Shown: one piece after another, positions 3,092 to 47,410 of the stretch | Layout of the letters: every line of letters starts with the position of its first letter | How positions within the stretch are numbered: the stretch's first letter is position 1 | From: Candidatus Micrarchaeia archaeon | Lineage (GTDB): Archaea > Micrarchaeota > Micrarchaeia > CAILAH01 | DNA length: 58,116 nt | Assembly: GCA_049970015.1 (NCBI GenBank) | Contig: JBMFNT010000002.1 | Coordinates: 1 to 58,116 of the forward strand | Direction of reading: 5' to 3' | Program-made: the position numbers and the translations under genes | Notes under the pieces: generated by a model | Told to the model about the DNA's origin: nothing | Databases searched by the model: none | Seen by the model: only the letters and a program-made list of their open reading frames with translations

Positions 3092-3606
3092 AACACATAT
3101 ATGAACCATAGGATAAGGGCAATTCCTTCAATAGCATACCTTTTCATATCATTTTTTCTTCCCTCCACCACGCTACCGGATGCTATTGCAAGGAGTACAA
3201 TAAAATAGTAAGTTGGTATTAGAGTGGCACTCGCTGCCCAGAGTACACTGCTTACTCCAAAAGGTAATCCCACCAGGTGCAATAGAAACAGAATAATACT
3301 ATTTACGATAAAAGCAATACTGGTTATGTATATGAGCCCAACACTTATTTGCACAAAAGATTTTTTAGCTACTTGTGAGGCAATGAACCCAACAATGCTG
3401 TTTATAGATATTATCGATATACCATTTATTAATAGGTTGATAAGGTAGTTCAAGTACGAAAATTTTGTTGGTAAGGATATTATTATAAGAGCAATAAAAG
3501 ATACAATTGCTGATTTTATCACACTCACATTAATTATTTTGTTTCGCAGGTCCCTTTTTGATGCGAGAAATGCATACACATACTCTTTTATCCATTTCAT
3601 TAACAT
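3067..3606 (-). CDS. Multi-pass membrane protein, unknown function
   Basis: Several hydrophobic helices. Its start overlaps the cyclase stop by 7 nt. Confidence 0.55.
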   Translation of the reverse strand: MLMKWIKEYVYAFLASKRDLRNKIINVSVIKSAIVSFIALIIISLPTKFSYLNYLINLLINGISIISINSIVGFIASQVAKKSFVQISVGLIYITSIAFIVNSIILFLLHLVGLPFGVSSVLWAASATLIPTYYFIVLLAIASGSVVEGRKNDMKRYAIEGIALILWFIYVFYVLSLTV

Positions 3607-4517
3607 TCCACCCGGTACACTTTTATTGGGATGCTCTTCCCTTTTACAGCCACTTCCTCAGGTTCTGAAAACCTGAATTTACCTTTCACAAGCTCATATG
3701 TACTCTCGCTTACGACAATCTCTCCACTCTTTGCCACACCATTGAGCCGAGAAGCTATGTTTACAGTATCCCCTATCACAGTGTAATCCATATATCTATA
3801 CGACCCAATGTTTCCCATAACAACTTCTCCAGTGTTCACCCCTATTCCGATTGAGAAATTATTAACCCCATACTTTTTCTTCACCATACGCGCATACTCT
3901 CTCATCCTGTTTTGTATTTTTACACATGCTTTTATTGCACATACTGCATGATTCTCTTTTTGTACAGGTGCATTAAAAACAGCCATTGTAGCATCGCCTA
4001 TATACTTTAACACAGTCCCATCCTCGTTGAATATCTCTTCAGTTATTATATCAAAGTGCCCATTAAGCAATTCAACAATCTGTTTTGGGTCCAGTTTTTC
4101 AGAGAGTGATGTAAACCCCCTCACATCTGTGAACACCACTGTTACTTGATGCTTTTCACCACCTAACTGCAGGTCTTTCTGCTCAAGCAGTTTTTCAACA
4201 ATATTTTCTGACACATACTTAGAGAAGAACTGTTTTGTCTTTATCTTTTCCTTTTCTTCTTTTACCCTTCTACCTTCTACATACATTATCACTATTATTA
4301 TTGCAATAGGCATGACACTTGTTATTATCCTAAACTGCTCTATGAACTCCCTAAATATTTCGGAATACATGTTGAACCAGATGTTAAAGAATACGAGTAA
4401 CACCATAGCAGTCATTGCAATGTACTTAACATCATTCGTGTCAAGATACCTACAAATCATTTTTATGCTTATGTAAAGCAGAAGAAGTAATACTACGTTC
4501 TCAAGCATGCGATTCAC
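3600..4517 (-). CDS. Membrane-anchored class III adenylate/guanylate cyclase
   Basis: N-terminal TM helices followed by VVFTDVRGFTSLSE, YIGDATMAVFNAP, GVNTGEVVMGNIGS and DYTVIGDTVNIASRL. Confidence 0.85.
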   Translation of the reverse strand: MNRMLENVVLLLLLYISIKMICRYLDTNDVKYIAMTAMVLLVFFNIWFNMYSEIFREFIEQFRIITSVMPIAIIIVIMYVEGRRVKEEKEKIKTKQFFSKYVSENIVEKLLEQKDLQLGGEKHQVTVVFTDVRGFTSLSEKLDPKQIVELLNGHFDIITEEIFNEDGTVLKYIGDATMAVFNAPVQKENHAVCAIKACVKIQNRMREYARMVKKKYGVNNFSIGIGVNTGEVVMGNIGSYRYMDYTVIGDTVNIASRLNGVAKSGEIVVSESTYELVKGKFRFSEPEEVAVKGKSIPIKVYRVEC

Positions 4518-13861: not shown

Positions 13862-15117
13862 TCCTCAATTATTTTTCCTTTTACATGTGCAACCCGGCCA
13901 CTTATGATTTTTACTTTTACTCTTTCCCCCAGGTTTATATCTGAATTACCCAGCACGATATGTTTATAGTAATCATTCCTTGCAACATGCCCTTTTCCAT
14001 CCTCAAGAACAGTTGCACTACATACCTTTCCAACCCACATACAATTCCTTTCCAGTGAAATAGCATCACAAATCCTGCTCATCTCAACACTTCTCTTTTT
14101 TACCTCCCTTCCATCAATTCGGTCCATGTTAAATGCAACAGTGCCAGGCCGTGGGCTGAACTTTGACACATTTGTTGTGTCTGGCTCAATTTTCTTAACA
14201 AGTTCGATAGTCTGTCTAAAGTCCTCCTCGCGTTCTCCAGGAAACCCAACAATCACATCAGTCATAATGTTTGAGTACCTATCCTTTCGTATTCCCCTTA
14301 CAACCTGCATAAAATCATCAACACTATATTCCCTATTCATTTTTTTCAGTATCTCATCAGAACCGCTCTGCACAGGTATATGATAAAACTTGTAAAACAC
14401 ATCGTTTTCTCTTATTATATCTATAATCTCCATGTTTCTAACCAAATGCTGTGGATTTATCATTCCAACACGTATCTTTAAACTGACATTCATACGGGCA
14501 ATCTTTTCAAGCAGGTCTGTAAGCCGTGTTCCAATATCATGCCCGTATGCCCCAGTATCCTGTGCAGTCAGCCTTAGTTCTTTTACACCGGCCTCATCTG
14601 CAATACGCACCCTTCGCAGTATCTCTTCAGGCAGCATACTTTTCAGCCCCGGCCTTGCAATCTTTGTAAAACAGTACGTGCAACTACCCTTGCACCCTTC
14701 ACATACAGCAATGGATTCAACAAGCCTGCAGAAAGCGCACATATACTTGTTCTTATCATCATAGCCAAAGTAGTCCGTACTCAGCCCTGCGATTGCATCA
14801 TCGACTGCTCGAGGTATATACCCTATACTTTTTGTGCTTACGATTACAGAATCTGGTGCAAATTTCCTAACAAGTTTTGCATTTGCAGTGGCAATACACC
14901 CACAGACAACAACAGGTTTTTTTACATTTTGCAACCTGTGTATTATCCTTTTCTCGGTTGCATCCTTGACCCCACAGGTGTTTATTATTAAAACATCTGC
15001 ATCATTCTCATTATCAACCTCAAAAAATCCGTGCTCAACAAGCACCTTTCGCATAATATCAGAGTCGTGCCTGTTGAGCGTGCACCCATATGTTTCTATG
15101 TAAAACCTTGTGCTCAT
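13858..15117 (-). CDS. Radical-SAM methylthiotransferase, MiaB/MtaB (CDKAL1-like) family
   Basis: YIETYGCTLNRHDS (UPF0004 domain), CxxxCxxC (CKGSCTYC), and a C-terminal TRAM-like region. Confidence 0.85.
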   Translation of the reverse strand: MSTRFYIETYGCTLNRHDSDIMRKVLVEHGFFEVDNENDADVLIINTCGVKDATEKRIIHRLQNVKKPVVVCGCIATANAKLVRKFAPDSVIVSTKSIGYIPRAVDDAIAGLSTDYFGYDDKNKYMCAFCRLVESIAVCEGCKGSCTYCFTKIARPGLKSMLPEEILRRVRIADEAGVKELRLTAQDTGAYGHDIGTRLTDLLEKIARMNVSLKIRVGMINPQHLVRNMEIIDIIRENDVFYKFYHIPVQSGSDEILKKMNREYSVDDFMQVVRGIRKDRYSNIMTDVIVGFPGEREEDFRQTIELVKKIEPDTTNVSKFSPRPGTVAFNMDRIDGREVKKRSVEMSRICDAISLERNCMWVGKVCSATVLEDGKGHVARNDYYKHIVLGNSDINLGERVKVKIISGRVAHVKGKIIED

Positions 15118-16109
15118 TGCAATTCCTGTTCGATTGCATTACTGAACACGCTGTACGGCTGTGCGCCCACAATTGAAAGCCCATTCACAAAGAATGTAGG
15201 GGTACCGCTCACACCAGCGGCAGTGCCATCATTAAAGTCTTTTCTTACTATCTCTGCCGTTTTTCCAGAATCAAGGCATTCATTAAACTTCTGTGAATCA
15301 AGCCCTATATCCACAGCATATTTTTTCAAACTGTTTATGTCTAATGCATTATTGTTTTCAAACAGTTTATCATGCATCTCCCAGAATTTTCCCTGCTCAG
15401 CCGCACACTCTGCAGCCTCTGCTGCTTTCTCTGAATTCTCATGGAAAGAGAGTGGGAAATGCCTGTACACAAGCTTAACCTTACCCGTTTTTATGTAATT
15501 CTCATTAATCTGCCCGTACGTTTCCCTATAAAACCTTGTACAGTATGGGCATTGGAAATCACTAAACTCAACTATTGTAACAGGTGCGTTCGGATCACCT
15601 TTCATGTTCCTTGCATCACCAGCCAGTTGTTCCACACTCATTTTCCGATTACCTTCATTGCTAGGCCCGGATTTTAGCTGGGCCTTTGCAATTGCAACAT
15701 CCTCTTTTATTTTTGAAACCTCAATTGGCTTCTGCAACAGGTAATTGTAATCTTTGGTTATGTATACATCCTGCGGGTAAATTCCATCAACAGTAAAGCT
15801 CAGCACTGCAAAATCACCCTCTTCACTATACTTCACATACTTAACCGTGTGCTGTGTACCTGTCTGAACATAATACATGTCCTCAAATATGCTAGCAATC
15901 TCATTAATCTTGTTTTGGTTTTCTGAAAACATTGCACATGCAATAGTGTTGTTCTCCAGATTTGTACTGTTTTGGCCGGTTGCAGAGAGTACAAGTGGTA
16001 CTCCATAATACCCCATAACAATCCCAAACAAAAACACAGCTATTGAAGCAACCACCATTTCTTTGCTTATCTCAAGAGTTTTTTCTCCTTCTTTCACATA
16101 AAACACCAT
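15114..16109 (-). CDS. Membrane-anchored DsbA-family thiol:disulfide oxidoreductase
   Basis: N-terminal TM segment and the thioredoxin-fold motif FSDFQCPYCTRF. Confidence 0.8.
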   Translation of the reverse strand: MVFYVKEGEKTLEISKEMVVASIAVFLFGIVMGYYGVPLVLSATGQNSTNLENNTIACAMFSENQNKINEIASIFEDMYYVQTGTQHTVKYVKYSEEGDFAVLSFTVDGIYPQDVYITKDYNYLLQKPIEVSKIKEDVAIAKAQLKSGPSNEGNRKMSVEQLAGDARNMKGDPNAPVTIVEFSDFQCPYCTRFYRETYGQINENYIKTGKVKLVYRHFPLSFHENSEKAAEAAECAAEQGKFWEMHDKLFENNNALDINSLKKYAVDIGLDSQKFNECLDSGKTAEIVRKDFNDGTAAGVSGTPTFFVNGLSIVGAQPYSVFSNAIEQELQ

Positions 16110-16159
16110 TTTACCTTCTCTTTGAAAACAAATATAAACATATCTAATCTAAGGAGTTT

Positions 16160-18691
16160 GTGATTTTGTCATCTGAATTGGAGGATTTGTTTAAGAAACG
16201 GTTTGAAAAGTATACAGAAGTTCAGCTTAAGGCAATCCCTGTTATCAAGTCAGGAAAGGATACGCTCGTAGTTGCACCCACAGGTAGCGGCAAGACTGAA
16301 GCTGCACTGCTTCCAATCCTTGATATGATGCACAGCTCAGGAACCCCCTCTCCACTTACTACAATATACATAACCCCTTTACGTGCTCTTAATAGGGACA
16401 TGGTAGAAAGGTTAAGGGAGTGGGCAAGCTGGATAGGGTGTAGGGTTGGTGTGAGACACGGTGATACATCAGCAAAGGAAAGAAGCTTCCAGGTGAAACA
16501 TCCTCCGCACATACTCATAACAACACCTGAAACATTGCAAAACCTTCTTGCAAATGAGCGATTCATTCCTTATTTAAGAAACCTTAGGTTTTTGGTGATT
16601 GATGAATTGCACGAGTTGGTCTCAAGCAAACGTGGTGCACAGCTATCACTGGGTATTACAAGGTTGGGTGAACTAGCAAGTTTTCAGGTAATTGCTCTAA
16701 GCGCAACAGTGTCTGACCCAGAGAACATAGGCAGGCCATTTCTTAAGGAAAATTATGAGATAGTTGTTGATAAGTCTGCTAGGCCCCCGGACATCTCAGT
16801 GGAGTTCATAACTGGAAAAAGTGAGATGGGAAGGCTTGATACGCTATGCAGAAGAATAAAAGAAACAATACGAGGTTCAAAGGCGCTGATATTTACCAAC
16901 ACTAGGTATATGGCTGAGCTTGTAGGCTCTCGGTTGATTGCAGATGGGATGAATGTACTAGTCCATCATGGATCTCTTAGCAAGGAAGAGCGCGAGTCTG
17001 TTGAGGAAAGGTTTAAGAAAGGCGAGGTAAATGCGCTCGTGTGCACATCATCCCTTGAGTTAGGCATTGACATTGGTGATGTTGACCTTGTTGTGCATGT
17101 AGGTTCTCCAAAACAGGTTAAGAAAGCACTTCAGAGGATTGGCAGGAGCGGTCATGCCCATAATAAGGTTTCTAAGGGCATAATACTTTCATACAATATA
17201 TTTGATTTCAATGAAGCCAAGGTTATAGCAGAACTATGTATAAAGAATAGCATGGAAAGGGAAGTGCATATCTATCCTTGTATGGATGTGCTTGCCCATG
17301 CAATTGTAGGAAGGCTGCTCACTCAAAAAAGAGGTGTGGATGATGAAATGTATAGATTTTTCAAAACAAACTGGTTGTATTCATCCATTTCTCTTGATGA
17401 TTTTAAGCTATTACTATCTGAGATGCACAGGTATGGTGTAATATTTTATGATGGTTCAAGGCTAAGGTTAACAAACAAATCAAGAAAGTATTACTTTGAT
17501 CGTGCAAGCACAATACCATTTACCTTAAAGTATGGAATGGTGTGCAATGGCAGGATGATTGGATATTTAGATGAGAGGTATGTCTCGTTCCTTGAGGAAG
17601 GTGAGACATTCATAATGCGCGGTGTTCCGTGGACCGTGCTTAGCATAGAGGAGGACAGGGTTATTGTTGAACAATCACACTCATTCTTGTTAACAATACC
17701 TGAATGGGAAGGTGAACAGATACCGGTTAGTATGGATGTTGCAAAAATGGTTATTGATAAGATGGATTTCAGTAAAGATACAATCCGTATTGATGTGTAT
17801 GCAGATCTCATGATAATCTATACATTCCTTGGCAGTAGTGCAAACAATGCGCTTGCACTTGCGCTTGCAGCGCGATTGAATGAGCACTTAAACAGCAATG
17901 TTGTCGTTCAATCTTCCCCTTACGCAGTTGCTCTCAGACTCCCATATCCAATGAGTAAGGAATCATTCATCAATGCAATCCGTGGTATAAACATAAACAA
18001 TGAGATACTTTCAAACATTACAAATCTGAGGGCTTTCCAGTATATATTTTCACAGATGGCATACTATTTTGGGATGTCTGAAGCTCGCGAGCATTTTAGC
18101 AGCTATTATCTGTCAAAATGCTCTGCATCCTATGTTTACAAGGAATCGGTCAACTATTTCTTCTATAAGTATTGTGATACAAGCACGGCACAGGAATTTT
18201 TGGACAGGGTTTTGATGCACAGCAAAATCAAGTTCATCATTCACAAATCATTACCTGAGATTGGAATGCAGGCGATCGAACATATGTCAGGCTCACAAAT
18301 CCTTTTCCCACAAATACCACAGAGTGCAGTTGAGGTATTGCTTGGCAATCTTCCAGAAACATACAGGTTTAGGTGCCTTAACTGTGGCAATGAGTTCTAC
18401 GGATATACAAAAGATCTTCCAAAGAAATGCAACAAATGTATGAGTGTTCTTATTGCTCCTTCCTCAGAAAAAGAATCTGCAAGGCTGGATAGGGAGGAGC
18501 TTATGCGCAGGGCATCGCTTTACAATGCGTATGGCAGACGCGCGCTCATAGCACTCTCAACGTATGGGGTTGGTACTGAAACTGCTGCACGTATACTGGC
18601 AAGGCTCCATAAGGATGAACGTGCGCTTGCACTTGACTTATTGCGTGCACGTGAGCAATTCATAAGAACAAAGAAATACTGGTCTGCATAG
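16160..18691 (+). CDS. lhr: Lhr-type superfamily 2 DEAD/DEAH-box helicase with C-terminal zinc ribbon
   Basis: APTGSGKTEAA, DELH, SAT, HHGSLSKEER and GRSGH motifs, plus a C-terminal CLNCGN...CNKC. Confidence 0.85.
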   Translation: MILSSELEDLFKKRFEKYTEVQLKAIPVIKSGKDTLVVAPTGSGKTEAALLPILDMMHSSGTPSPLTTIYITPLRALNRDMVERLREWASWIGCRVGVRHGDTSAKERSFQVKHPPHILITTPETLQNLLANERFIPYLRNLRFLVIDELHELVSSKRGAQLSLGITRLGELASFQVIALSATVSDPENIGRPFLKENYEIVVDKSARPPDISVEFITGKSEMGRLDTLCRRIKETIRGSKALIFTNTRYMAELVGSRLIADGMNVLVHHGSLSKEERESVEERFKKGEVNALVCTSSLELGIDIGDVDLVVHVGSPKQVKKALQRIGRSGHAHNKVSKGIILSYNIFDFNEAKVIAELCIKNSMEREVHIYPCMDVLAHAIVGRLLTQKRGVDDEMYRFFKTNWLYSSISLDDFKLLLSEMHRYGVIFYDGSRLRLTNKSRKYYFDRASTIPFTLKYGMVCNGRMIGYLDERYVSFLEEGETFIMRGVPWTVLSIEEDRVIVEQSHSFLLTIPEWEGEQIPVSMDVAKMVIDKMDFSKDTIRIDVYADLMIIYTFLGSSANNALALALAARLNEHLNSNVVVQSSPYAVALRLPYPMSKESFINAIRGININNEILSNITNLRAFQYIFSQMAYYFGMSEAREHFSSYYLSKCSASYVYKESVNYFFYKYCDTSTAQEFLDRVLMHSKIKFIIHKSLPEIGMQAIEHMSGSQILFPQIPQSAVEVLLGNLPETYRFRCLNCGNEFYGYTKDLPKKCNKCMSVLIAPSSEKESARLDREELMRRASLYNAYGRRALIALSTYGVGTETAARILARLHKDERALALDLLRAREQFIRTKKYWSA

Positions 18692-18739
18692 TTTACATTT
18701 ATCGTAAAGTATTTATTTGTTGGATATGAGAAACTCTGC

Positions 18740-19669
18740 ATGGAAACAACGTGTAAAAAAGGAAAAGACTCCAATAGCAGGAAGTATTTTAAGAAATGGG
18801 GTGCATATATATTAGTAGGTGGCTTGATGATTGTTGGTGGTTATATGGGTGGCTCTGTTGCTCTCAAGAAATTTGAAGCAAGTAATACAGTCCCAGTAAA
18901 AGAAGAAAAGAAAATTACTCCTGCTAAAGATGCTATTATCAAAGATGCTGAGAAAGTGTATAATGAACTGAGTACCATGGTAAATGAGTTGGAGAATAAG
19001 TTCTGGGAAAGAAAAATCACCTTTTCGGAAATGATTGGTGAAATGAATTCAGGTATTTATAATCGCATGCCACAAATCTTGAAGGTTCTTTCCTCACTTG
19101 CACGCGAAGCGGTTAAGTATGAAGGAAGTAAAGAGAACCCCTATTATGAAATTTTAAAGAAGCTGTGCCATATTGGTTTTGACGCAGCTGTAGGGACACC
19201 TAATGATATAAGAGTGCCGCGAATTGCTTATGAATACATAAACGATGGGAGAAGGACTAAAGAGGAAATACTTGGAGCATTTGCAGCAATAGCAGTTGAA
19301 GATTCAAGTAGGTCGATTGATGAACCGTACTCAAGCGATGATCATTTCGCTGAGTCTATGATTAGAGCTGCAATGATCGTAGATATAAATGAAAAGCCCA
19401 GCGCAAACAAAAAAGAACTGGAGAAGAAACTCAATGAAATCCGCAATGAGAGGGATAATAGGCTCTATCATTCTTTTGACAGGTTCAAGGAGAACAACTC
19501 ACAATATAGCATAGTCGCGGATTTCATTTTAGACTATCTTTTACAAGATAAGTTTGGCAGTAAAAGCCCTATAGAGCGCTTCAACGAAGGATCATATGAT
19601 GAATACATGAGAAAAAGGCATATTGAGTGCATTAAGACGCTGATAGCAGTTGTGGGCTCAGTTCCCTGA
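18740..19669 (+). CDS. Hypothetical membrane-anchored alpha-helical protein (low-GC gene)
   Basis: One N-terminal TM segment. No motif recognised. Visibly lower G+C than the neighbours. Confidence 0.5.
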   Translation: METTCKKGKDSNSRKYFKKWGAYILVGGLMIVGGYMGGSVALKKFEASNTVPVKEEKKITPAKDAIIKDAEKVYNELSTMVNELENKFWERKITFSEMIGEMNSGIYNRMPQILKVLSSLAREAVKYEGSKENPYYEILKKLCHIGFDAAVGTPNDIRVPRIAYEYINDGRRTKEEILGAFAAIAVEDSSRSIDEPYSSDDHFAESMIRAAMIVDINEKPSANKKELEKKLNEIRNERDNRLYHSFDRFKENNSQYSIVADFILDYLLQDKFGSKSPIERFNEGSYDEYMRKRHIECIKTLIAVVGSVP

Positions 19670-21535
19670 GTACTTCAGTTTAGAGTATAGTTCTGGAGGC
19701 TTAGCTTTTTTTCCTGCGAAGTAATCAGCGAAGTAATCAGACAACTTTTCCAGGAACTCATACTGTTCCTCATAATATGTCGTTTTGGAGTATTCTCTAT
19801 ATTTTTCTGGATCAATATCTATTTTCTTTAGCTTTTCTTCAGCGATTTTAGTTATTGATTTCCTATCATCCTTATTAATAGCACTAAGTATCATATCATT
19901 AGTTAAGGGATCAATATGATATGGAAAAGCACCAAGTTTAAAGGCAAGAATAATATCATCTATCACCCATTCCGGTCTTTCATTTTTCAACCAATCCTTC
20001 TTTTCCCTATTTATTTTCAGAAAAGCCTTAGAGATAGCTGTCAGGTCTTGTATAGTTTTCTGCTTAGTTTCTCCCCAAATGCCTCTACAAATAGCTCCAG
20101 CACGTATCACATTATAAATTATTATAGCATGCTCTTTATATCCCTTATCAACCAATAATTCAAGTGCGCGCGCGTACTGCTGATAAAATTTAGATATTTT
20201 CATGCTATTAGCCATCCTTTTATTTGAGATTTCTTTAACTGACTCAGCAATCATCTTTGCATATTTAACTGCTTCATCCAAATCCGTATATACTCCCTCT
20301 TCATTGTATGTGCTCTCAAATAATTTGGTAGCAATGTGCATTCTCACAATGGGATCTAGATTATTTAGGTTAAGGCTTTTGCTTTTTTTTACAAATTCTA
20401 TATACTTTTTATCATACTCTATAACATATTTCTGATATGCTGGCGGCAAATTTTCGAATTCTTCTATTTTTAATTCCTGTCCATCAAATAACTTCTGTTG
20501 CGCTTTGCATGCCTTTACAGCATCATCAAATCCCATATTACTTCCCAAATAGTATGTTAAATTTTGCTTCTTAGCAATTGTTGGACTTTCTACTTCAGCA
20601 TGGCCCTTTCCTTCTTTGTCTATTTTTGTTGTATCATACAAGTAACTCTTCTTACCAATTTTAACAATTGCTACAGCATGGGATATTTCCATAGAATCTA
20701 TTGCAGCAACTTCTGTTATTGATACACTCCCTCTGGTTCCAGTGTCCTTTAGTATTGAGGCAGCCAATGCTGCGGCAGCAACACTCCCAGAAAAACAGTT
20801 TATTGAACGTTTCTCAGCTATTGATTCTACATCTGCCTGTGAAGAAAATGCATCGTAGCTCAACCCAAAACTGTTTTCGGCACTGTTTTTGGCATCTTTT
20901 TCCTTTTCTTCCTTTTTCTTGATCCTCCATTCCTCCATGACAGCATCTATGATCTTGCGTACATATTCCTCTTTTTCCTTTTCTGATTTACTATTAGCAC
21001 TATTGATTGCCTTTTCTAAAGTGGTCTCTTCCCCATTGATATTTATGGTCATTTTATTTATGTTAAACTGCTTTCTGAGTTCATAACCGATTTCAACAGC
21101 ACTCTCGCTAAGCGCAAATTCCGGTTTTTTCATAGCAGGACCCACAGCATTTTTTAAATATTCAGATGCTTTGGCATATCCATTATATTTTGCAATTTTC
21201 TCACATTCCTTTATTGTTTCCTCATCAATTACTTTTCCCTTTTGTTTGTAAAACTCAGTTTCGATCTTGATTGCGCGCACAGGATCCTTATCTATAAGGA
21301 CACTAAACATCTCCTCTTTTACTTTCTTCATAATATAATCAATACTCTTGTTTTTTTCGATCATTTTGAACGCCTTATCCCTTATTCTCTTATATTCTGG
21401 GGTTTCATATTCAATACCATATTTAGGAGCCTTTTGCATAATTAGAAATTCCACACCCAGTTTTTTTACAGGCTCCATCTCTTTTTTTACAAGTTCACTC
21501 TCTCCAGTTCCCATACAGTTATATATAGATTGCAA
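19658..21535 (-). CDS. Large hypothetical protein (low-GC gene); possible papain/transglutaminase-like Cys-His-Asp core
   Basis: 625-aa Lys/Glu-rich ORF. The segment NCFSGSVAAAALA...ISHAVAIVKIGKKSYLYDTT resembles a Cys...His...Asp thiol-peptidase arrangement, which is a weak inference. Confidence 0.5.
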   Translation of the reverse strand: MQSIYNCMGTGESELVKKEMEPVKKLGVEFLIMQKAPKYGIEYETPEYKRIRDKAFKMIEKNKSIDYIMKKVKEEMFSVLIDKDPVRAIKIETEFYKQKGKVIDEETIKECEKIAKYNGYAKASEYLKNAVGPAMKKPEFALSESAVEIGYELRKQFNINKMTININGEETTLEKAINSANSKSEKEKEEYVRKIIDAVMEEWRIKKKEEKEKDAKNSAENSFGLSYDAFSSQADVESIAEKRSINCFSGSVAAAALAASILKDTGTRGSVSITEVAAIDSMEISHAVAIVKIGKKSYLYDTTKIDKEGKGHAEVESPTIAKKQNLTYYLGSNMGFDDAVKACKAQQKLFDGQELKIEEFENLPPAYQKYVIEYDKKYIEFVKKSKSLNLNNLDPIVRMHIATKLFESTYNEEGVYTDLDEAVKYAKMIAESVKEISNKRMANSMKISKFYQQYARALELLVDKGYKEHAIIIYNVIRAGAICRGIWGETKQKTIQDLTAISKAFLKINREKKDWLKNERPEWVIDDIILAFKLGAFPYHIDPLTNDMILSAINKDDRKSITKIAEEKLKKIDIDPEKYREYSKTTYYEEQYEFLEKLSDYFADYFAGKKAKPPELYSKLKYSGN

Positions 21536-21552
21536 TAATAATAATAAAAGTT

Positions 21553-22014
21553 ATGCTTAGTGAGAGGGCGTATGCAAAACAAGTGCTTACATATGTAAAT
21601 AGCAGAAATTATGCAGATGCGCTGAGATTAGCATTAGAAATGGCCAAGAACTATCCATCCTCTTTTCTTTCTGCCTTTATTCTATCCAAGGCATACTTCT
21701 GGAATGATATGTACGATGATGCGGAATCGCACGCAACCAAAGCAGTTTCCTATGCTAAGAACGAAAATGATAGAAATCGGGCACGCTTTTTTCTCTCGTT
21801 AGTGTACATTCAGAAAGATGATCTCAGGAAGGCATATGAAATTCTAGATCAGATCCCAAAATCAAGCCTTGACCCTTATTACTGGGAACTGAAGGTAATT
21901 CTCGATCTTGCACTGGACAGGGGTAGTGAAGATGATTTCAAAAGACTTTACTTGTTGAATCGCGAGATGGCAGAAAAGCTTCTCATCGAGATCATGGTTA
22001 GATATAAAGTTTAG
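21553..22014 (+). CDS. TPR-repeat protein
   Basis: Repeated 34-aa helical pattern (ALRLALEMAK..., AYFWNDMYDDAESHATKAV...). The last 6 codons lie inside the left direct repeat. Confidence 0.6.
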   Translation: MLSERAYAKQVLTYVNSRNYADALRLALEMAKNYPSSFLSAFILSKAYFWNDMYDDAESHATKAVSYAKNENDRNRARFFLSLVYIQKDDLRKAYEILDQIPKSSLDPYYWELKVILDLALDRGSEDDFKRLYLLNREMAEKLLIEIMVRYKV

Positions 22015-22057
22015 TTGCATATTAATTGTATGCACTGCTTTTTGAGAATGGCAAGAT
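21993..22057 (+). repeat. Left direct repeat flanking the PMK-MVD cassette (decayed copy of the rfcL promoter and 5' end)
   Basis: 21993-22036 is identical to 24654-24697, and 22032-22057 is identical to 24775-24800. The left copy therefore equals the right copy with an 82-nt deletion between two gcact microhomologies. Confidence 0.9.
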
Positions 22058-22160
22058 GTAACTGCATTTACAAGTACTATTACAATCACCACATTCGACC
22101 GCACTGTTTGTTGAGATGTTATAAGGCTGCAACTTTTGGGAAAAAACTATTGCATTCCTG

Positions 22161-23447
22161 TTATTGAATCGAAATCAGATTGATCATTTTTTTGAATGTT
22201 TTTTTATTCTCTTTTCTAACACCTTCGTTGCTTATACTTAAATTTAATGGATTAATCTTTTTCTTCTGATAACTTCTCCAAAAATCCTCAACTTTCTTTT
22301 TTGACCTTTTACTTAGGCAAATCGCAGCGATTGCATCTCCTCCTCCTGCCCCAGGAAGCTTTGCTACGAATGCTCCATTCTTCTTTGTATCTTCAATTAA
22401 TTCCGAATATTCGCTTGGTTCGATTGGCGCTCCGCTAAGTTCACCAAGTTTCTTTGTCAATAACCTTCCCTTGTCAAACGCTTCTCTGAAATCGTTGAAT
22501 ACTTTAAGGTCATTCTTTAATCCTTCAGTTAATCTGGATTTCCTTTTCTTTGAAGCTACCTTTAGTACAAGCCCATATTTTTCAGGATTTTGTTTTGAAA
22601 GCTTGTTTATCTCGGAAAGCGCTGCTATTGCCAGCTGATTTGCTCCATTTAGTTCTATCATTAGTTGCTTGTACTGTTCTGGTTGAGCTTCTTTGAAAGC
22701 ATTAACCTGTTTCACCATCGCAGAAGTTGACGCTGACTCTCCAATAAAATTACCAATCACCGGAACAAATTTAGGTGGAAGTTCAAGTTGTTGAACTAAA
22801 TAATCCCACTTTTTATCAATGACAGAGACAACTTGTTCGATTGTTGGGTCATCAGACACGTCATTGATTATCGAAGGACTGTATCTTACGTAAGAGTGGC
22901 CGCCATATGTACTTGCAGCAACATCAAATCCACTACCTACCTTACCTTGCGCCTTTGAATGAGCAAACTGCGCAATTTTATGAATCAGTTCTCTGCTTTT
23001 GTCAATCTTGAAACCATATGCTTGAAGGATTGCTCCAACCGTTGCAGTTGTCACTGCTGCAGAGCTTCCGAGTCCTGCTTTTGATCCTTCAACCGAAAAT
23101 GCTGGATCACTAATTGTTGTAAGTTTGAAACCTATAATTCTTTTTCCTTTTCCCTTCAAATATTTTATGCATGTTTCAGTAGCTATCTTCACAAATTTGA
23201 TGACGCTTGCTTCTTGCTCACTGAGTTGCTTGTCAAAAACAATCTTTTCATTATCAATTCTTCCTTCAAGCTTCAATCTGAATTGAGGAAGATCAAATAC
23301 AATTTTGTTTTCTTTTGATGTTTCAACTCTTGCATAAACTCTTTTGTTAACACCTGTGACAAAACTCACATTTGGTCTCTCTAGGACCGAATACCCGCCT
23401 ATCCAAAGAATCTTCCCTGGTGCGGATGCAATTGAAATTTTCATCAT
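22161..23447 (-). CDS. Phosphomevalonate kinase (ERG8-type GHMP kinase)
   Basis: SAPGKILWIGGYSVLE N-terminus, GLGSSAAV, and KLPGAGGGDAI. Confidence 0.8.
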   Translation of the reverse strand: MMKISIASAPGKILWIGGYSVLERPNVSFVTGVNKRVYARVETSKENKIVFDLPQFRLKLEGRIDNEKIVFDKQLSEQEASVIKFVKIATETCIKYLKGKGKRIIGFKLTTISDPAFSVEGSKAGLGSSAAVTTATVGAILQAYGFKIDKSRELIHKIAQFAHSKAQGKVGSGFDVAASTYGGHSYVRYSPSIINDVSDDPTIEQVVSVIDKKWDYLVQQLELPPKFVPVIGNFIGESASTSAMVKQVNAFKEAQPEQYKQLMIELNGANQLAIAALSEINKLSKQNPEKYGLVLKVASKKRKSRLTEGLKNDLKVFNDFREAFDKGRLLTKKLGELSGAPIEPSEYSELIEDTKKNGAFVAKLPGAGGGDAIAAICLSKRSKKKVEDFWRSYQKKKINPLNLSISNEGVRKENKKTFKKMINLISIQ

Positions 23448-23525
23448 ATCACTTTTTCAAATCTAAACTCATATTAGAGTTCCACTCAAATCAAAAAGCA
23501 CTGCTTTTATATTCATATAATCACA

Positions 23526-24656
23526 TTATTCCACAATCAGTTTTCCAGAAGTTTCATCAAAGAAATGCTTTTTTACGTTTCCATTCTCATCGATAAGATG
23601 ATCCCTTTCAGCTGTGAGTATTTTTGGACCGTTTCCGATTTTACAAACCATTATCTTTTGAACTCCTTCAATTTCTTCAAGGATTTTCTTGATTTCAGGA
23701 ACATATTTTTCAATTGTAAATATGTGTGCGTTTGGACCTGCATCAAATGTGTACCCAGCCTTTATTTCTCCAGCCGAAGTATTGTAATCATGTATTGCAT
23801 AAATTATTTCTTTTGAAACATCGTTAAGGTACATAATTGGTGGCCATGTATCAAGCATTGTTGCATGCATATTATTGCTATCCCTCATAACCATTTCAAG
23901 AAGCTTTGGAAGATCCTTGTTTAATATTGCTGCTTTTACATTTTCAATTAATTTTGGTAGATAATTTAGTCTTGCGGGGTATAATAGACTTGTTGCAACT
24001 GTTTGTTTCATTCCAGCTCTTGAACTAACTTTTTTCTTACCAGATTCAACAATAGCAATAACATTCCTAAATTCTGGCCAGTGCGATGATTGTGCTATTT
24101 GAACAGCATAACTATCACTTCCATCTGCCTTACACCCTTTTTTCCATTCTACAAAACCTCCCAGAACTGATCTGCAGGCAGAACCAGATCCCAATCTTGA
24201 AAGAATTGAAAGTTCCTTACTATCAACTTTCAGATCAAGTGCGGCTACTGCCGCAACTGCAAGTGCGGCAAGGCCGGCTGCTGAAGATGCAAAACCGGCT
24301 GCTGTTGGGAAACAATTGAGAGATACAATTTTTGCCTTAAGGTTCGTTCCAGCTTTTTTTCGGACCACATCCAGTTGCTGAAGTCGCTCTTCTGTGTCTT
24401 TTCCTTCCATCTTCTTCCCATTAAGAATAAGTTCATCTTTTAAGAACTTATCTGAGAACATGACTGTCGTCCTTGTTTTCAGCTGTTCATCCATCGTTGC
24501 AGAAATACTTCCTTCTTTTGGAAGAATCAGTTTCTCATCTCTTTTCCCCCAATATTTTACAAGTGCAATATTTGCAGTTGCTTCTGCAGTTGCTCTATAC
24601 ATAGTTTCACCTATTCTTCCAGTTACCGCAGTACGGCTTTTAAATCTGTTTGCCAT
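23526..24656 (-). CDS. mvaD: Diphosphomevalonate decarboxylase (GHMP family)
   Basis: NIALVKYWGKRD, GFASSAAG, and FDAGPNAH. Confidence 0.85.
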   Translation of the reverse strand: MANRFKSRTAVTGRIGETMYRATAEATANIALVKYWGKRDEKLILPKEGSISATMDEQLKTRTTVMFSDKFLKDELILNGKKMEGKDTEERLQQLDVVRKKAGTNLKAKIVSLNCFPTAAGFASSAAGLAALAVAAVAALDLKVDSKELSILSRLGSGSACRSVLGGFVEWKKGCKADGSDSYAVQIAQSSHWPEFRNVIAIVESGKKKVSSRAGMKQTVATSLLYPARLNYLPKLIENVKAAILNKDLPKLLEMVMRDSNNMHATMLDTWPPIMYLNDVSKEIIYAIHDYNTSAGEIKAGYTFDAGPNAHIFTIEKYVPEIKKILEEIEGVQKIMVCKIGNGPKILTAERDHLIDENGNVKKHFFDETSGKLIVE

Positions 24657-24800
24657 GGTTAGATATAAAGTTTAGTTGCATATTAATTGTATGCACTTGT
24701 ACCAGAAATATGCCCCAAAGAGCTTGAAAGAATTTGCCGGAAACCCAGAAGCAGTTGAAAAAGTTAAGAAATGGGCACTGCTTTTTGAGAATGGCAAGAT
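24654..24800 (+). repeat. Right (intact) direct repeat: MVD start codon, the divergent promoter region and the first 110 nt of rfcL
   Basis: See the left repeat at 21993-22057. Confidence 0.9.
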
Positions 24801-25848
24801 ACAGAAACCTATATTCTTATATGGCCCGCCTGGTATTGGGAAGACTGCACTTGCGTATGCGGTTGCTCACGAGATGGGATGGGAACTCATAGAGTTTAAT
24901 GCCTCTGACACGCGAAACAAAAATAATGTTGAAAGGATAATTGGAGCAGCAAGCGGCTCAGCAGGATTATTCTCGAGGAGAAAACTTATACTGATTGATG
25001 AGGTTGATGGACTAGAGGGCACTGCTGATAGGGGAGGCATTTCAGCAATTGTCTCAATGATTAGGAGCTCTAGCCAGCCGATTATACTTACTGCGAATGA
25101 TGCATGGGATAGAAAGCTTACACCTTTACGCGGAGGCTGCGATTTTGTTGAGATGAAGAGGATTAACAAGAGGACGGTATTATTGACAATACGAGAGATT
25201 GCACATAAGGAAGGTATAAAGCTGAGCGATGAAGTGCTTGAGCGCATTGCAGATGCCAGCAACGGGGATCTGCGCTCTGCAATAATAGACCTTCAGGTAG
25301 GTCAATCTATCATGGAGAGGAACAGGGAAAGGCTGGTGTTTGAGTGCATGAAGGATTTATTCAAGGCAGAAGATTACCAGAATGCAGTTTCCTCATTTGA
25401 AGATTCATCTCTTGATCATGATATGATAAAGCTTTGGATAGAACATAATATAGCAAATGAGTATGAATCTGCTGAGGAGGTTGCACGCGCATACGATTAC
25501 TTGTCACGTGCAGATGTTTTTGATGGGAGGATAATCAGAAGACAGGCATGGAAGCTTCTCAAGTATAGCAATGCCATAATGCTTGCAGGGGTTTCATTAT
25601 CAAAAGAAAAAAAATACCATAAATTTGTAAAGTACGAATTCCCGAGTTACTTAAAAAGTATGAGTATGAGCTCTGAGAAGAGGCAGTTAAGAAAATCTAT
25701 TGTAAGAAAGGTTTTGCGCAAATGCCATACGTCAGCTTCCGATGCTGAAAGCTACCTCCCACTGCTCAGGGAGATGGCAAAGAAAGGAATGCCTCTTGAT
25801 TATTTTGAATTTGATGATGATGAGATTGCTTTTATCAAAAAGACATAG
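24691..25848 (+). CDS. rfcL: Replication factor C large subunit
   Basis: YAPKSLKEF, LYGPPGIGKTA, and LILIDEVDG. The ATG at 24691 is preferred over the TTG at 24676. Confidence 0.88.
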   Translation: MHLYQKYAPKSLKEFAGNPEAVEKVKKWALLFENGKIQKPIFLYGPPGIGKTALAYAVAHEMGWELIEFNASDTRNKNNVERIIGAASGSAGLFSRRKLILIDEVDGLEGTADRGGISAIVSMIRSSSQPIILTANDAWDRKLTPLRGGCDFVEMKRINKRTVLLTIREIAHKEGIKLSDEVLERIADASNGDLRSAIIDLQVGQSIMERNRERLVFECMKDLFKAEDYQNAVSSFEDSSLDHDMIKLWIEHNIANEYESAEEVARAYDYLSRADVFDGRIIRRQAWKLLKYSNAIMLAGVSLSKEKKYHKFVKYEFPSYLKSMSMSSEKRQLRKSIVRKVLRKCHTSASDAESYLPLLREMAKKGMPLDYFEFDDDEIAFIKKT

Positions 25849-29807: not shown

Positions 29808-30057
29808 GAGCGGCAAGCAGTAGTCTGCCTTCTGTTTTCAGCAGCATTTGTCTTAGCGCCATAATGGCTTGCACGTTCATTGCCTATAAGGATGGCCGTT
29901 TCATCCAGCGCATGCAGATGTCAGTTTTCTTCATTCCTTTTAGCAAGGCCGGTATCGTTTCTGTTCCGTCCTCTCCTATTACAGGAATATAGGCTCAGCG
30001 TGGGCAGAACTTCCTCAGCGCACCTTTTCTTTCTTGGGAAGAAAGAAAAGCTGCACC
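29808..30057 (-). ncRNA. rnpB: RNase P RNA, catalytic core (the 5' end may lie at ~30367; see findings)
   Basis: On the minus strand, in the canonical order: GAGGAAGUUCUGCCC (rc of 30002-30016, CR-I), ACAGAAACGAUACCGGCC (29947-29964), GGAUGAAACGGCC (29894-29906), and ACAGAAGGCAGACUAC (29820-29835). AGUUCUGCC pairs with GGCAGACU leaving one bulged U, which is the geometry of helix P4. Confidence 0.7.
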
Positions 30058-30357
30058 AAAAGAAAGAACCTCTTCTTTTTGAGAAGAGTTGCACCGAAAA
30101 GAACCTCTTCTTTTTTAAGAAGAGCTGCACCAAAAGAAAGAACCTCTTCTTTTTGAGAAGAGTTGCACCGAAAAGAACCTCTTCTTTTTGAGAAGAGCTG
30201 CATCAAAAGAACCTCTTCTCTTAGTGCAAACTTCTTTTTTTAGAAGAGTTGCACCAAAAGAACCTCTTCTTTTTGAGAAGAGCTGTATCAAAAGAACCTC
30301 TTCTCTTAGTGCAAACTTCTTTCTTCTCTCAAGGAGAGGTGCACCGTCAGCTGCACG
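30018..30357 (-). repeat. Tandem array of ~9 hairpin modules (about 34 nt each, two of ~50 nt)
   Basis: The plus-strand unit is gaaccTCTTCTttttgAGAAGAg(t/c)tgcacc followed by an (g)aaaa spacer. Unit starts are about 30066, 30101, 30140, 30175, 30209, 30260 and 30294, plus the perfect 11-bp hairpin at 30025-30049. Higher-order repeats are 30051-30123 versus 30124-30196 and ~30197-30281 versus 30282-30345. Confidence 0.9.
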
Positions 30358-38807: not shown

Positions 38808-39494
38808 ATGAAACCAATAATCACGCTCTCGATAGGCGGGAGTCTTATAGTGCCAGGGGAACCTGATGTAGAATACATAAAGAAAATGGGCAATCTCCTC
38901 ATGAAACACTCCGTTAAGTTCAAGTTTGCAATCGTAACAGGAGGAGGTGCTGCGGCACGTGTCTATGCACGTGCGATGAAAAACATTATCAATAATGAGT
39001 TTTTGGCGGACCAGGCAGCAATAATGAGTACTTGGCAAAATGCATACCTAATACTTGCAGCATTACATGGGAAGGCTTACAAGACATTACCAAAAACATT
39101 TGATGAGGCGGCACAGGCGCTTGAGACGAACGATTTTGTTGTTATGGGAGGTACTATGCCAGGTATTACTACGGATACAGATGCAGTGCTTCTTGCGGAG
39201 AGGGTTGGCTCAAAAAGAATAGTAAACATAAGTAATGTGGACGCAATATATACGGGAGACCCGAGGAAGGATAGCAATGCAAAAAAGATTGACAGGATGC
39301 ATGTTGATGAGCTGGTTTCGATGGCCTCAGTTGCGGATAGGAGGAAGGCTGGAGAGAATTTCATATTTGACATACTTGCATGTAAGCTCCTCGCACGCTC
39401 TGGTATAGAGGCGCATTTTGTGAGCGGCCGCAACTTGATGGATGTTGAGAATGCAATTATTGGCAGGAAACATGGTGGGACAGTTGTAAAGTGA
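38808..39494 (+). CDS. pyrH: Uridylate kinase, archaeal type
   Basis: Amino acid kinase fold with LSIGGSLI, TGGGAAAR and GGTMPGITTD. Confidence 0.88.
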   Translation: MKPIITLSIGGSLIVPGEPDVEYIKKMGNLLMKHSVKFKFAIVTGGGAAARVYARAMKNIINNEFLADQAAIMSTWQNAYLILAALHGKAYKTLPKTFDEAAQALETNDFVVMGGTMPGITTDTDAVLLAERVGSKRIVNISNVDAIYTGDPRKDSNAKKIDRMHVDELVSMASVADRRKAGENFIFDILACKLLARSGIEAHFVSGRNLMDVENAIIGRKHGGTVVK

Positions 39495-46470: not shown

Positions 46471-47115
46471 ATGTCCCTTATAGCGGGCATTGATGAGGCT
46501 GGGCGCGGGTCAGTCCTCGGCCCGCTTTCCATTGCACTTGTTTGTGGTAATGAAGATGATTTTTTATCTATTGAGCTTACGGATTCTAAGCTCCTCACAC
46601 GCAAGGAGCGCGAATCACTTTACCCTGAAATAAGGAAGAAGTTTTACACATCTTTTATTCTTATAACTGCGAATGAGCTTAATGAGCTTATGAGAAGGTT
46701 TTCGCTCAATGAAATAGAGGCGATGAAGGCAGCATACTTGATTGAAGAGCTTCCGTTAAACCCATCACAGGTTTATGTAGACTCTCCAGACCCAATCGCA
46801 GAAAACTTTGGGCACAGGATTTTGAGGCATATGCAAAAAAATGTTTGTATAAATGCAGAGCATAAGGCAGACTTCAATTATCCTGTTGTGAGTGCAGCAT
46901 CTATAGTTGCAAAGGTTGTTAGGGATTGGGAGATCGACAGGATACGGGATGAACTAGGGTATGATTTTCTTTCTGGTTATCCATCTGATGAATCCACAGT
47001 TCTTGCAGTGAAAGAAATGTTAAGGACGGGCAAAGGAATAGAGTATGTAAGGATGCATTGGAGCACGGTTGAGAACATACTGTCTGAACAGAAGAAGCTG
47101 CATGACTATTTCTAG
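46471..47115 (+). CDS. rnhB: Ribonuclease HII
   Basis: GIDEAGRGSVLGPL, DSK, and SAASIVAK. Confidence 0.92.
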   Translation: MSLIAGIDEAGRGSVLGPLSIALVCGNEDDFLSIELTDSKLLTRKERESLYPEIRKKFYTSFILITANELNELMRRFSLNEIEAMKAAYLIEELPLNPSQVYVDSPDPIAENFGHRILRHMQKNVCINAEHKADFNYPVVSAASIVAKVVRDWEIDRIRDELGYDFLSGYPSDESTVLAVKEMLRTGKGIEYVRMHWSTVENILSEQKKLHDYF

Positions 47116-47139
47116 TTTTTGGTTGATGTTCATTTCCTT

Positions 47140-47410
47140 TCAATTATCCTGTTGTGAGTGCAGCATCTATAGTTGCAAAGGTTGTTAGGGATTGGGAGAT
47201 CGACAGGATACGGGATGAACTAGGGTATGATTTTCTTTCTGGTTATCCATCTGATGAATCCACAGTTCTTGCAGTGAAAGAAATGTTAAGGACGGGCAAA
47301 GGAATAGAGTATGTAAGGATGCATTGGAGCACGGTTGAGAACATACTGTCTGAACAGAAGAAGCTGCATGACTATTTCTAGTTTTCGGTTGATGTTCATT
47401 TCCTTTCAAT
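47140..47410 (+). pseudogene. Tandem duplicate of the rnhB 3' third, the intergenic spacer and the last 15 nt of the convergent DHH gene
   Basis: 47140-47410 repeats 46874-47144 at an offset of 266 nt with one mismatch (t/c near 47118/47384). The junction lies at a shared tcctttcaat. Confidence 0.92.

Follow-up and report, generated by a model that had tools for sequence, protein, structure and literature searches.

The classical (eukaryote/Sulfolobus-type) lower mevalonate pathway, in which a phosphomevalonate kinase (PMK) works alongside a diphosphomevalonate decarboxylase (MVD), is rare in Archaea generally and has been reported from Sulfolobales, some Asgard archaea and "several DPANN MAGs," i.e., metagenome-assembled genomes (PMC11052028). 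The pathway has been reported as complete in Norongarragalinales, WAL, Anstonellales, and Micrarchaeales, and mevalonate kinase (MVK), PMVK, and MVD have been inferred in the last common ancestor denoted MIA LCA; two other orders are described with isopentenyl phosphate kinase (IPK) in place of MvaD (PMC12892359). Micrarchaeota vary in their dependence on hosts for membrane lipids, a variation attributed to horizontal transfer and gene loss (PMC12892359). Here, we characterize an MVD-PMK cassette that lies between a TPR gene and rfcL, the gene for the replication factor C large subunit, in a 58-kb stretch of DNA from a Micrarchaeota (DPANN) archaeon; this whole stretch is referred to below as the window. 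The best explanation overall, and one that we consider probable, is that the cassette was recently inserted, with target duplication, at the TPR-rfcL junction. An initial reading of the window (the original prediction) had called a PMK-MVD pair atypical, which holds for Archaea generally but not for Micrarchaeota, where it is typical. The gene pair is ordinary for the phylum, and neither an enzyme nor a pathway nor an element class is new here; the novelty lies in a well-resolved case of the pair's mobility.

The locus shares several features with genomic islands and operons gained by illegitimate recombination, including an empty site, direct repeats of target sequence, deviant codons, and a repeat copy shortened at a 5-nt microhomology. 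Unlike such islands, it has a duplication of at least 147 nt, far above the transposase type, it lacks a mobility gene, and the point of insertion is within the 5′ end of an essential gene, which was apparently rescued by the duplication. Archaeal integrative elements of the SSV/pNOB8 type carry att direct repeats of ~40–60 nt, to which the 44-nt exact direct repeat at the cassette bears a likeness, but the cassette has neither an integrase (whole or split) nor a tRNA target, and its repeat is a 147-nt target duplication with an internal deletion instead of a short att core. Transposons and insertion sequences are marked by target duplications of 2–15 nt, terminal inverted repeats (TIRs), and a transposase; the cassette differs in having 147 nt, ends that match at 11/17 positions on post-hoc comparison, and no transposase. 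To our knowledge, an end-joining mechanism of the kind proposed below has not been demonstrated in DPANN archaea.

The cassette and its scar comprise the following features, given in window coordinates.

21993–22057, plus strand: left repeat copy (H′), 65 nt, with the ancestral TPR 3′ end, a 15-nt spacer, the rfcL TATA box, an ATG (22030), and a shortened rfcL 5′ fragment, as aligned with the junctions of two relatives (L017 and L018, see below)
22058–24653, minus strand: inserted cassette, 2,596 nt, consisting of MVD and PMK with the putative MVD promoter region ahead of them and a 3′ flank that bears an oligo-T tract; the repeat copies abut it exactly on both sides, and it is absent at the L017/L018 site
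22058–22160, minus strand: PMK 3′ flank, with a T6 tract on the minus strand (22141–22146) as candidate archaeal terminator
22161–23447, minus strand: predicted phosphomevalonate kinase (ERG8-like GHMP kinase), 428 aa
23526–24602, minus strand: predicted diphosphomevalonate decarboxylase, 358 aa, with 24656 as the start in the GenBank model
24603–24653, minus strand: MVD upstream region within the insert, with a TATA-like TTTAAAA (24638–24644) and a Shine-Dalgarno (SD)-like GGTGA (24607–24611), whose functions are suggested by sequence
24654–24800, plus strand: right repeat copy (H), 147 nt, reaching to rfcL codon 37
24698–24779, plus strand: segment unique to the right copy, 82 nt, absent from the left copy between GCACT pentamers
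22030–22167, plus strand: 45-codon Cys-rich open reading frame (ORF), which opens at the left-copy rfcL ATG after a frameshifting deletion (translation MHCFLRMARCNC) and ends at the PMK stop

Both repeat identities and the 82-nt deletion that had been proposed proved exact. Positions 21993–22036 are identical to 24654–24697 (44 nt, 100%) and 22032–22057 to 24775–24800 (26 nt, 100%), and joining 24654–24697 to 24780–24800 reproduces 21993–22057 exactly. The left copy thus equals the right copy minus the 82 nt at 24698–24779, a segment bounded by the GCACT pentamers at 24693 and 24775. The right copy holds a 22-nt relic of the TPR 3′ end (24654–24675), the TATA box (24663–24669), and the rfcL ATG (24691). 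A third copy was not found in the window by short-word self-BLAST or by a search allowing up to 3 mismatches (0 expected, 100 shuffles).

The exact MVD protein of the window is present on two further public contigs from the same species, L001 (GCA_049972225.1) and L002 (GCA_049700115.1), which show about 99.6–99.8% nucleotide identity to the window, and the repeat structure is carried by all three assemblies. L001 has both repeat copies, and its junctions match the window's exactly; the L002 contig, 3.3 kb long, breaks off within the left copy and has one A→G single-nucleotide polymorphism in the right copy. The recurrence of the junctions in several assemblies indicates that the structure is real DNA and not a one-off assembly error. 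A chimera, in which the cassette of another organism was joined at shared k-mers, would find some grounds in the suspicious near-perfect tandem duplications and N-gap duplicates elsewhere in these MAG assemblies, and in the break of the L002 contig at the repeat. We consider it barely credible, however, in view of identical junctions in three assemblies that differ by 0.2–0.4%, and of a left copy that is a deletion variant and must exist as real DNA; moreover, the contig of another organism would have to carry, at its two ends, 26 nt and 44 nt of rfcL/TPR sequence from this genome. The 44-nt repeat does break short-read assemblies, L002 being an example.

The state of the site before insertion is suggested by two relatives, L017 (Logan ERR14788039) and L018 (GCA_024274875.1). 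The resident genes that frame the comparison are listed here.

16160–18691, plus strand: lhr helicase, a backbone gene (Pfam DEAD/Helicase_C/WH_Lhr/DEAD_assoc), syntenic in L003 and L010–L016
18740–19669, plus strand: u309, a lineage-specific resident gene whose L017/L018 homologue is 26–30% identical
19658–21535, minus strand: u625, a lineage-specific resident gene, 625 aa, whose L017/L018 homologue is 41% identical
21553–22014, plus strand: TPR gene, 153 aa (Pfam TPR_19 and others), with its last 22 nt within the left repeat copy
24691–25848, plus strand: rfcL, 385 aa, intact, with a predicted leaderless start (NF003229, 378.9 bits vs. a cut-off of 280)

Both relatives show the gene order lhr-u309h-u625h-TPR-rfcL-NUDIX-transglutaminase-M17, the same order and orientation as in the window, with the TPR stop 15 nt ahead of the rfcL ATG, and neither PMK nor MVD was found within 10 kb on either side of the junction. 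The TPR C-termini correspond (window ..LLIEIMVRYKV*, L017 ..LLLDILIRYKF*, L018 ..LLLDIMLKYKL*), and the R/K-Y-K codons of this C-terminus form the TATA box of the leaderless rfcL promoter. The TPR C-terminus, TATA box, and spacer of L017/L018 align with the left copy. By this alignment, the TPR-rfcL junction of L017/L018 is the presumed pre-insertion state of the site. In eight further rfcL loci, PMK/MVD are likewise not adjacent to rfcL. The empty site bears out the original prediction of a cassette that entered an ancestral TPR-rfcL junction and duplicated ~147 nt of it; TPR directly beside rfcL is the arrangement that the prediction had proposed to look for in relatives.

The relatives also bear on the neighboring genes. 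TPR orthologues in L017/L018 show 51% and 44% identity; a word-index search with the TPR protein returned only the protein itself, and the orthologues were reached via the u625 homologues. An exhaustive search of 1.84 billion representatives gave two real u625 homologues, at 42–49% identity, which are those of L017/L018. Neither u309 nor u625 matched a family in Pfam, NCBIfam, PHROGs, or PADLOC. The u625 product is a Lys/Glu-rich orphan, 96% identical between the window and L001, where neighboring proteins are 99–100% identical, and in L018 it is split into two ORFs. The backbone common to the rfcL relatives and the window is rSAM-DsbA-lhr-rfcL-NUDIX-transglutaminase-M17-MFS-GT-pelota-ABC; lhr stands directly upstream of rfcL in L003, L007, and L010–L016. 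Identity of rfcL to that of the window is 74% in L010, 69% in L011/L012, 67% in L016, 66% in L013–L015, and 58% in L003/L007; when rfcL was used to scan GTDB genomes and JGI metagenomes, one lineage only was reached, at 58% identity. The rfcL N-terminus (MHLYQKYAPK..KKWALLFENGK) is conserved in all relatives. We rejected a reading of the five genes at 18692–24653 as one foreign island, with lhr-rfcL as the ancestral junction, since u309, u625, and TPR are resident and fast-evolving in L017/L018; a model of templated filler at a single break, built on the same lhr-rfcL junction, was dropped with this evidence. At positions 175–215 of L010, the lhr stop is followed directly by TATGATCATATAAATCTTAG, which can be aligned with the window's TPR 3′ end and rfcL promoter. 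This sequence could be either the relic of a u309-u625-TPR deletion or the ancestral intergenic source of the TPR C-terminus.

The divergence of the site allows the duplication to be placed relative to these lineages. The two copies in the window are identical at 65/65 positions, whereas the 147-nt H region, much of which is under coding constraint, is only 72–73% identical between the window and L017/L018 (72–77% to the orthologous stretch of L017, L018, and L010). The split from L017/L018 must therefore long predate the duplication, and by this measure we regard the insertion and duplication as a recent event. Taken alone, it appears very likely that an ancestral TPR-rfcL junction recently received an insertion and that target sequence was duplicated with it. 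Direct repeats promote precise excision, and an empty site is the expected remainder, so that L017/L018 might instead have lost an old cassette by homologous recombination between old repeats, restoring a clean TPR-rfcL junction. Such a loss is highly improbable, however, given that the copies have stayed identical even though the left one is non-coding, while selected orthologous sequence has diverged to 72–73%, and that the codon usage of the cassette (described below) has not been ameliorated. Even so, the repeat would still testify to an earlier insertion into the TPR-rfcL junction.

How the recent insertion came about can be sketched from the scar. In a recent ancestor, a 2.6-kb segment would have entered the tightly packed TPR-rfcL junction by illegitimate, integrase-independent recombination, bringing a complete MVD→PMK unit equipped with a TATA-like box, an SD-like motif, and an oligo-T tract of its own. 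In the simplest model, both ends of a linear fragment would have been joined illegitimately to the target at sites separated by 147 nt, the first 22 nt ahead of the TPR stop and the second in rfcL codon 37. Sister chromosomes, multiple chromosome copies, or staggered breaks may have been involved, and the 147 nt between the joining points would be left on both sides of the insert. Selection would retain only products with a whole TPR gene and a whole essential rfcL, including its promoter; in the viable outcome, TPR would be intact on the left, and rfcL with its leaderless promoter (TATA box in the last TPR codons) on the right. The redundant rfcL 5′ fragment on the left may later have lost 82 nt by slippage or by microhomology-mediated deletion between the GCACT pentamers. 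The left edge of the duplication lies at −37 from the rfcL ATG, where the BRE/TATA region has its upstream edge (BRE being the TFB-recognition element). Perhaps the duplication started out longer and a redundant TPR fragment was trimmed, much as the left copy lost its 82 nt; otherwise, this edge could be a preferred break point.

No transposase, integrase, tRNA, or known RNA element was found in or beside the insert with Pfam, PHROGs, PADLOC, and Rfam, and the window has 0 tRNA genes. The insert ends, compared as inverted repeats, match at 11/17 positions (GTAACTGCATTTACAAG and GCAAACAGATTTAAAAG; post-hoc p ~0.001–0.007). No further occurrence of their consensus motif was found in the window or in 18 other loci, and the right insert-end motif overlaps the putative MVD TATA box. 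We do not take the match of the ends as evidence of a transposon. These ends, together with the compact unit with its own promoter between direct repeats, would be compatible with the remnant of a mobile or integrative element, either with the 44-nt repeat as an att-like site or with the ends as TIRs mobilized in trans. This origin is very unlikely: integrase, transposase, and tRNA are lacking in and beside the insert, the end consensus is found at no other site in the loci compared, the 147-nt duplication places target sequence on both sides in a manner unlike any known transposase footprint, and the right "TIR" doubles as the putative MVD TATA box.

The gene identities that had been proposed for TPR, PMK, MVD, and rfcL hold: MVD and rfcL pass TIGR01240 and NF003229, respectively, the TPR gene has TPR Pfam matches, and the best model for PMK is ERG8-type, with a score below its cut-off. 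MVD scores 317.6 bits against the TIGR01240 equivalog (cut-off 171), compared with 152.9 for MvaD/PMD (cut-off 475), 43.4 for mev_decarb, and 37.1 for mev-3-kinase. It has the two-domain architecture MVD-like_N + MDD_C (PF22700+PF18376; Pfam matches of 1.5e-58 and 1.2e-47), and its closest PDB match is the Sulfolobus solfataricus enzyme DMD (5gmd/4z7c, E 3e-83). In an alignment with 5gmd, the GHMP P-loop AAGxASSAAG, GSGSACRS, and TFDAGPN (DAGPN) are conserved. We therefore assign 23526–24602 as the gene of a diphosphomevalonate decarboxylase, the activity being predicted from these matches. The PMK protein, of the GHMP (galacto-/homoserine/mevalonate/phosphomevalonate) kinase superfamily, carries GHMP_kinases_N (PF00288) and GHMP_kinases_C (PF08544); it scores best with TIGR01219 (221.6 bits, under the cut-off of 377), followed by NF040957 (142; cut-off 500) and TIGR01220 (125.6; cut-off 165.7), so that all three PMK cut-offs are missed, and these models outrank those of MVK (79.8 and 68.8 bits). 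PDB matches are weak (3k17, 1k47, 3gon). PMK is 73–77% identical to the gene downstream of MVD on two other loci, L004 and L006. In their models, the two proteins resemble the classical lower pathway, MVD by passing TIGR01240 and PMK by its closeness to the ERG8-type model; the locus departs from it in the sub-cut-off PMK scores and in having no MVK in the cassette, in contrast to the MVK-MVD-PMK arrangement of L006. The cassette enzymes would convert mevalonate-5-phosphate to mevalonate-5-diphosphate and then to isopentenyl diphosphate, the two reactions with which the classical mevalonate pathway ends.

The repeat border had been placed at the MVD ATG. It coincides with the ATG of the 376-aa GenBank model (24654–24656) but probably not with the true start. 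MVD homologues are typically 357–360 aa, and those of L004/L005 start MYRATAEATANI / MYMATAEATANI; these lengths and N-termini put the MVD start at 24602, so that the GenBank model probably has 18 codons too many. Its in-frame ATG, further upstream, belongs to a palindromic CATG supplied by the TPR relic. TTTAAAA and GGTGA lie 39 nt and 5 nt upstream of 24602, PMK follows MVD after a 78-nt spacer, and the T6 tract starts 15 nt past the PMK stop. The insert is thus a predicted self-contained MVD→PMK expression unit, the promoter and terminator being candidates recognized by motif and position. A scan with sigma-70 promoter and hairpin terminator models, which are not applicable to archaea, gave fewer matches than shuffled sequence. 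An inverted 14-mer in the MVD-PMK spacer (GCACTGCTTTTTGA/TCAAAAAGCACTGC) was set aside as no better than other chance 14-mers of the same listing. Genes for MVK, HMGR, HMGS, IDI, and IPK were not found within the window; an AA_kinase gene at 38808–39494, the window's only gene of the amino-acid-kinase fold, was considered as IPK and rejected as an archaeal UMP kinase.

MVD and PMK are adjacent, in that order, in L004, L005, and L006, and one gene stands between them in L019 (GCA_037444485.1), which is from a distant Micrarchaeote. These neighborhoods are unrelated, MVK is sometimes ahead, and no nucleotide homology was found between the cassette flanks of the window and the MVD/PMK flanks in L004–L006. 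In L006 (7982–12397), the genes form a four-gene operon, GHMP344-GHMP309(MVK-like)-MVD-PMK, and the window cassette is without the upstream kinase. In L004, a same-strand gene fragment ends just upstream of MVD. In L019, a ThiF-type E1, a JAB deubiquitinase-like protein, a Rad60-SLD ubiquitin-like protein, and a UQ_con E2 are clustered at 14602–18242, a few kb from MVD-HAD-PMK, and this cluster resembles a eukaryote-like ubiquitin system.

The composition of the cassette was weighed in several ways. Hand counts had suggested 32% G+C in both cassette genes against 42% in TPR and 50% in lhr; these figures were wrong, the real values being 37.5% for PMK, 37.8% for MVD, 39.8% for TPR, and 41.7% for lhr. 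The insert has a bulk G+C of 37.3%, and its genes lie ~1.2–1.3 standard deviations under the window mean. The low-GC tract begins near 19500 and takes in u625 and u309; since the resident u625 is even lower (34.8%), bulk G+C does not single out the cassette. The 6-kb block at 18692–24653 is the lowest-GC segment of the window (0.366 vs. 0.404 ± 0.014) and the most tetranucleotide-deviant of 522 windows, and the tetranucleotide distance of the cassette is among the top 5 of 556 windows. Codon usage is more specific. G+C at third codon positions (GC3) is 0.249 in MVD and 0.296 in PMK, compared with 0.393 ± 0.048, which ranks the two genes 1 and 2 of 51. At fourfold-degenerate third positions (GC4), the values are 0.181 and 0.236, compared with 0.334 ± 0.060, with MVD the lowest of 50 genes scored. 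GAG/(GAA+GAG) is 0.12 in MVD and 0.21 in PMK, compared with 0.49 ± 0.14. Bulk G+C by itself thus says little, and it is in GC3, GC4, GAG usage, and tetranucleotide distance that the cassette is deviant. In L004, L005, and L006, the GC3 of MVD/PMK equals that of their neighbors, which indicates that low GC3 is not intrinsic to these genes.

For MVD as well as rfcL, the nearest homologues that carry a name are Candidatus Micrarchaeota/Micrarchaeia. The named MVD matches among the top 120 belong to Micrarchaeota, except for one MAG labeled Nanoarchaeota and one labeled Minisyncoccales. Neighbor joining of 103 representatives of MVD clusters placed the protein of the window as sister to P0002 (L004; 83% identity), followed by P0003, then P0004 (L005) with P0007, and then P0005 (L006) with P0006 and P0008. 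By the small subunit of replication factor C (RFC), the L004 contig is an outgroup: its protein is 55–59% identical to those of the window (59%), L013, L016, and L003, while the proteins of the window, L013, L016, and L003 show 70–83% mutual identity (70–77% between the window and its syntenic relatives). No MVD closer than that of L004 was found in a 5.8-billion-cluster database that holds the rfcL of the syntenic relatives. An attempt to link MVD matches, by way of neighboring protein accessions, to the MAGs with the closest rfcL gave no match, and the accessions were not found in the supplements of PMC12892359. Taken together, the codon usage, the sister MVD on a contig that is an RFC outgroup, and the lack of a closer MVD favor acquisition from another Micrarchaeote without proving it. 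We lean toward the view that the cassette, taken by itself, was horizontally acquired, and its source was most likely a different Micrarchaeote with A/T-richer codons, not the organism's own lineage. The cassette had initially been called foreign, and this is likely from codon usage and from a sister MVD that lies on a contig with a more distant RFC small subunit, but it is not proven.

Alternatively, a native and vertically inherited MVD-PMK pair might have moved within the chromosome into the TPR-rfcL junction, which would leave the same scar without horizontal gene transfer. MVD and PMK are indeed lineage-typical for Micrarchaeota, both in the literature (PMC12892359) and in the MVD matches. 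Conservation of MVD across the phylum is also strong (in L019 it is 71% identical, compared with only 34% for lhr), so that 83% identity to L004 is not in itself incongruent. Against this stand the lowest GC3 values of 51 genes, GAG usage ~2–2.6 standard deviations under the mean, and the observation that the same genes match their neighbors in L004–L006, as well as the position of the sister MVD on a contig that is an outgroup by RFC; genes of long residence should have been ameliorated. We consider relocation rather unlikely.

Several points weigh against a recent insertion of a horizontally acquired cassette. It is unusual for a target duplication to measure 147 nt, and the left edge of this one falls exactly at the upstream edge of the minimal rfcL promoter, which needs later trimming or a breakage hot spot; with no mobility genes present, we infer the joining mechanism from the scar alone. 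The horizontal origin leans on codon usage and on a single linked marker, the RFC small subunit of L004, which could be a paralogue. The nearest sampled MVD/PMK genes (L004, L006) are not low in GC3, and the actual donor is therefore unsampled. None of the named top-120 MVD matches falls in the accession ranges of the annotated syntenic MAGs, which are incomplete. Finally, PMK scores under the NCBIfam trusted cut-offs.

Concerning the 45-codon ORF, two strain differences are seen in L001/L002, both non-synonymous, and there is thus no sign of constraint; the ORF is probably a by-product of the deletion. As judged by its position, a transcript of the ORF would run antisense toward the PMK 3′ end, and T7 runs lie on the plus strand at 22187–22193 and 22199–22205. 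A more far-reaching speculation, which we think quite improbable, is that the scar records an unrecognized, integrase-independent uptake of promoter-bearing operon cassettes by DPANN archaea, in which a break occurs at the edge of a leaderless promoter occupied by TATA-binding protein and transcription factor B (TBP/TFB) and a two-ended joining duplicates >100 nt. The 11/17 ends could then be a recognition feature, and the left-copy rfcL promoter may drive the 45-codon ORF or else an RNA antisense to the PMK 3′ end, amounting to the birth of a de novo gene or regulator.

If the insertion occurred as proposed, the locus offers a base-pair-resolved view of one lipid-gene gain before and after the event, with a filled site that bears the scar and two relatives with an empty site. 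A complete unit for the expression of isoprenoid-precursor genes would have been placed beside an essential replication gene, and its acquisition would have been possible without recognizable mobile-element machinery. In a very compact genome, in which a promoter lies inside the last codons of a neighboring gene, a duplication can rescue both flanking genes, and decay of the redundant left copy appears to be ongoing.

Some further repeats occur in these assemblies. The window has two tandem duplications, one at the 3′ end of the RNase HII gene (46873–47144 / 47139–47410, 272 nt, 99.6%) and one at the 3′ end of an amidophosphoribosyltransferase-like gene (1538–1755 / 1755–1972, 218 nt, 98.6%). 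Both sites are outside the coverage of L001 and may be assembly artefacts, L001 having its own duplicates elsewhere. In L001 (1753–2131 and 20580–21023), these are a 124-nt duplicate of the pelota 3′ end flanking an N run and a 222-nt tandem duplicate at the 3′ end of a radical-SAM gene; both are absent from the window and are probably scaffolding or merging artefacts. At 30043–30325 of the window, degenerate tandem repeats with units 84–88% identical surround a 103-aa ORF, and the irregular alignment of L001 there suggests copy-number variation between strains. Elsewhere in the window, a class III adenylate/guanylate cyclase catalytic domain (Pfam Guanylate_cyc, 8.9e-36) is encoded at 3600–4517 of this DPANN genome, and an Orc1/Cdc6 gene lies at 51652–52833, where a putative replication origin may adjoin in the intergenic region.

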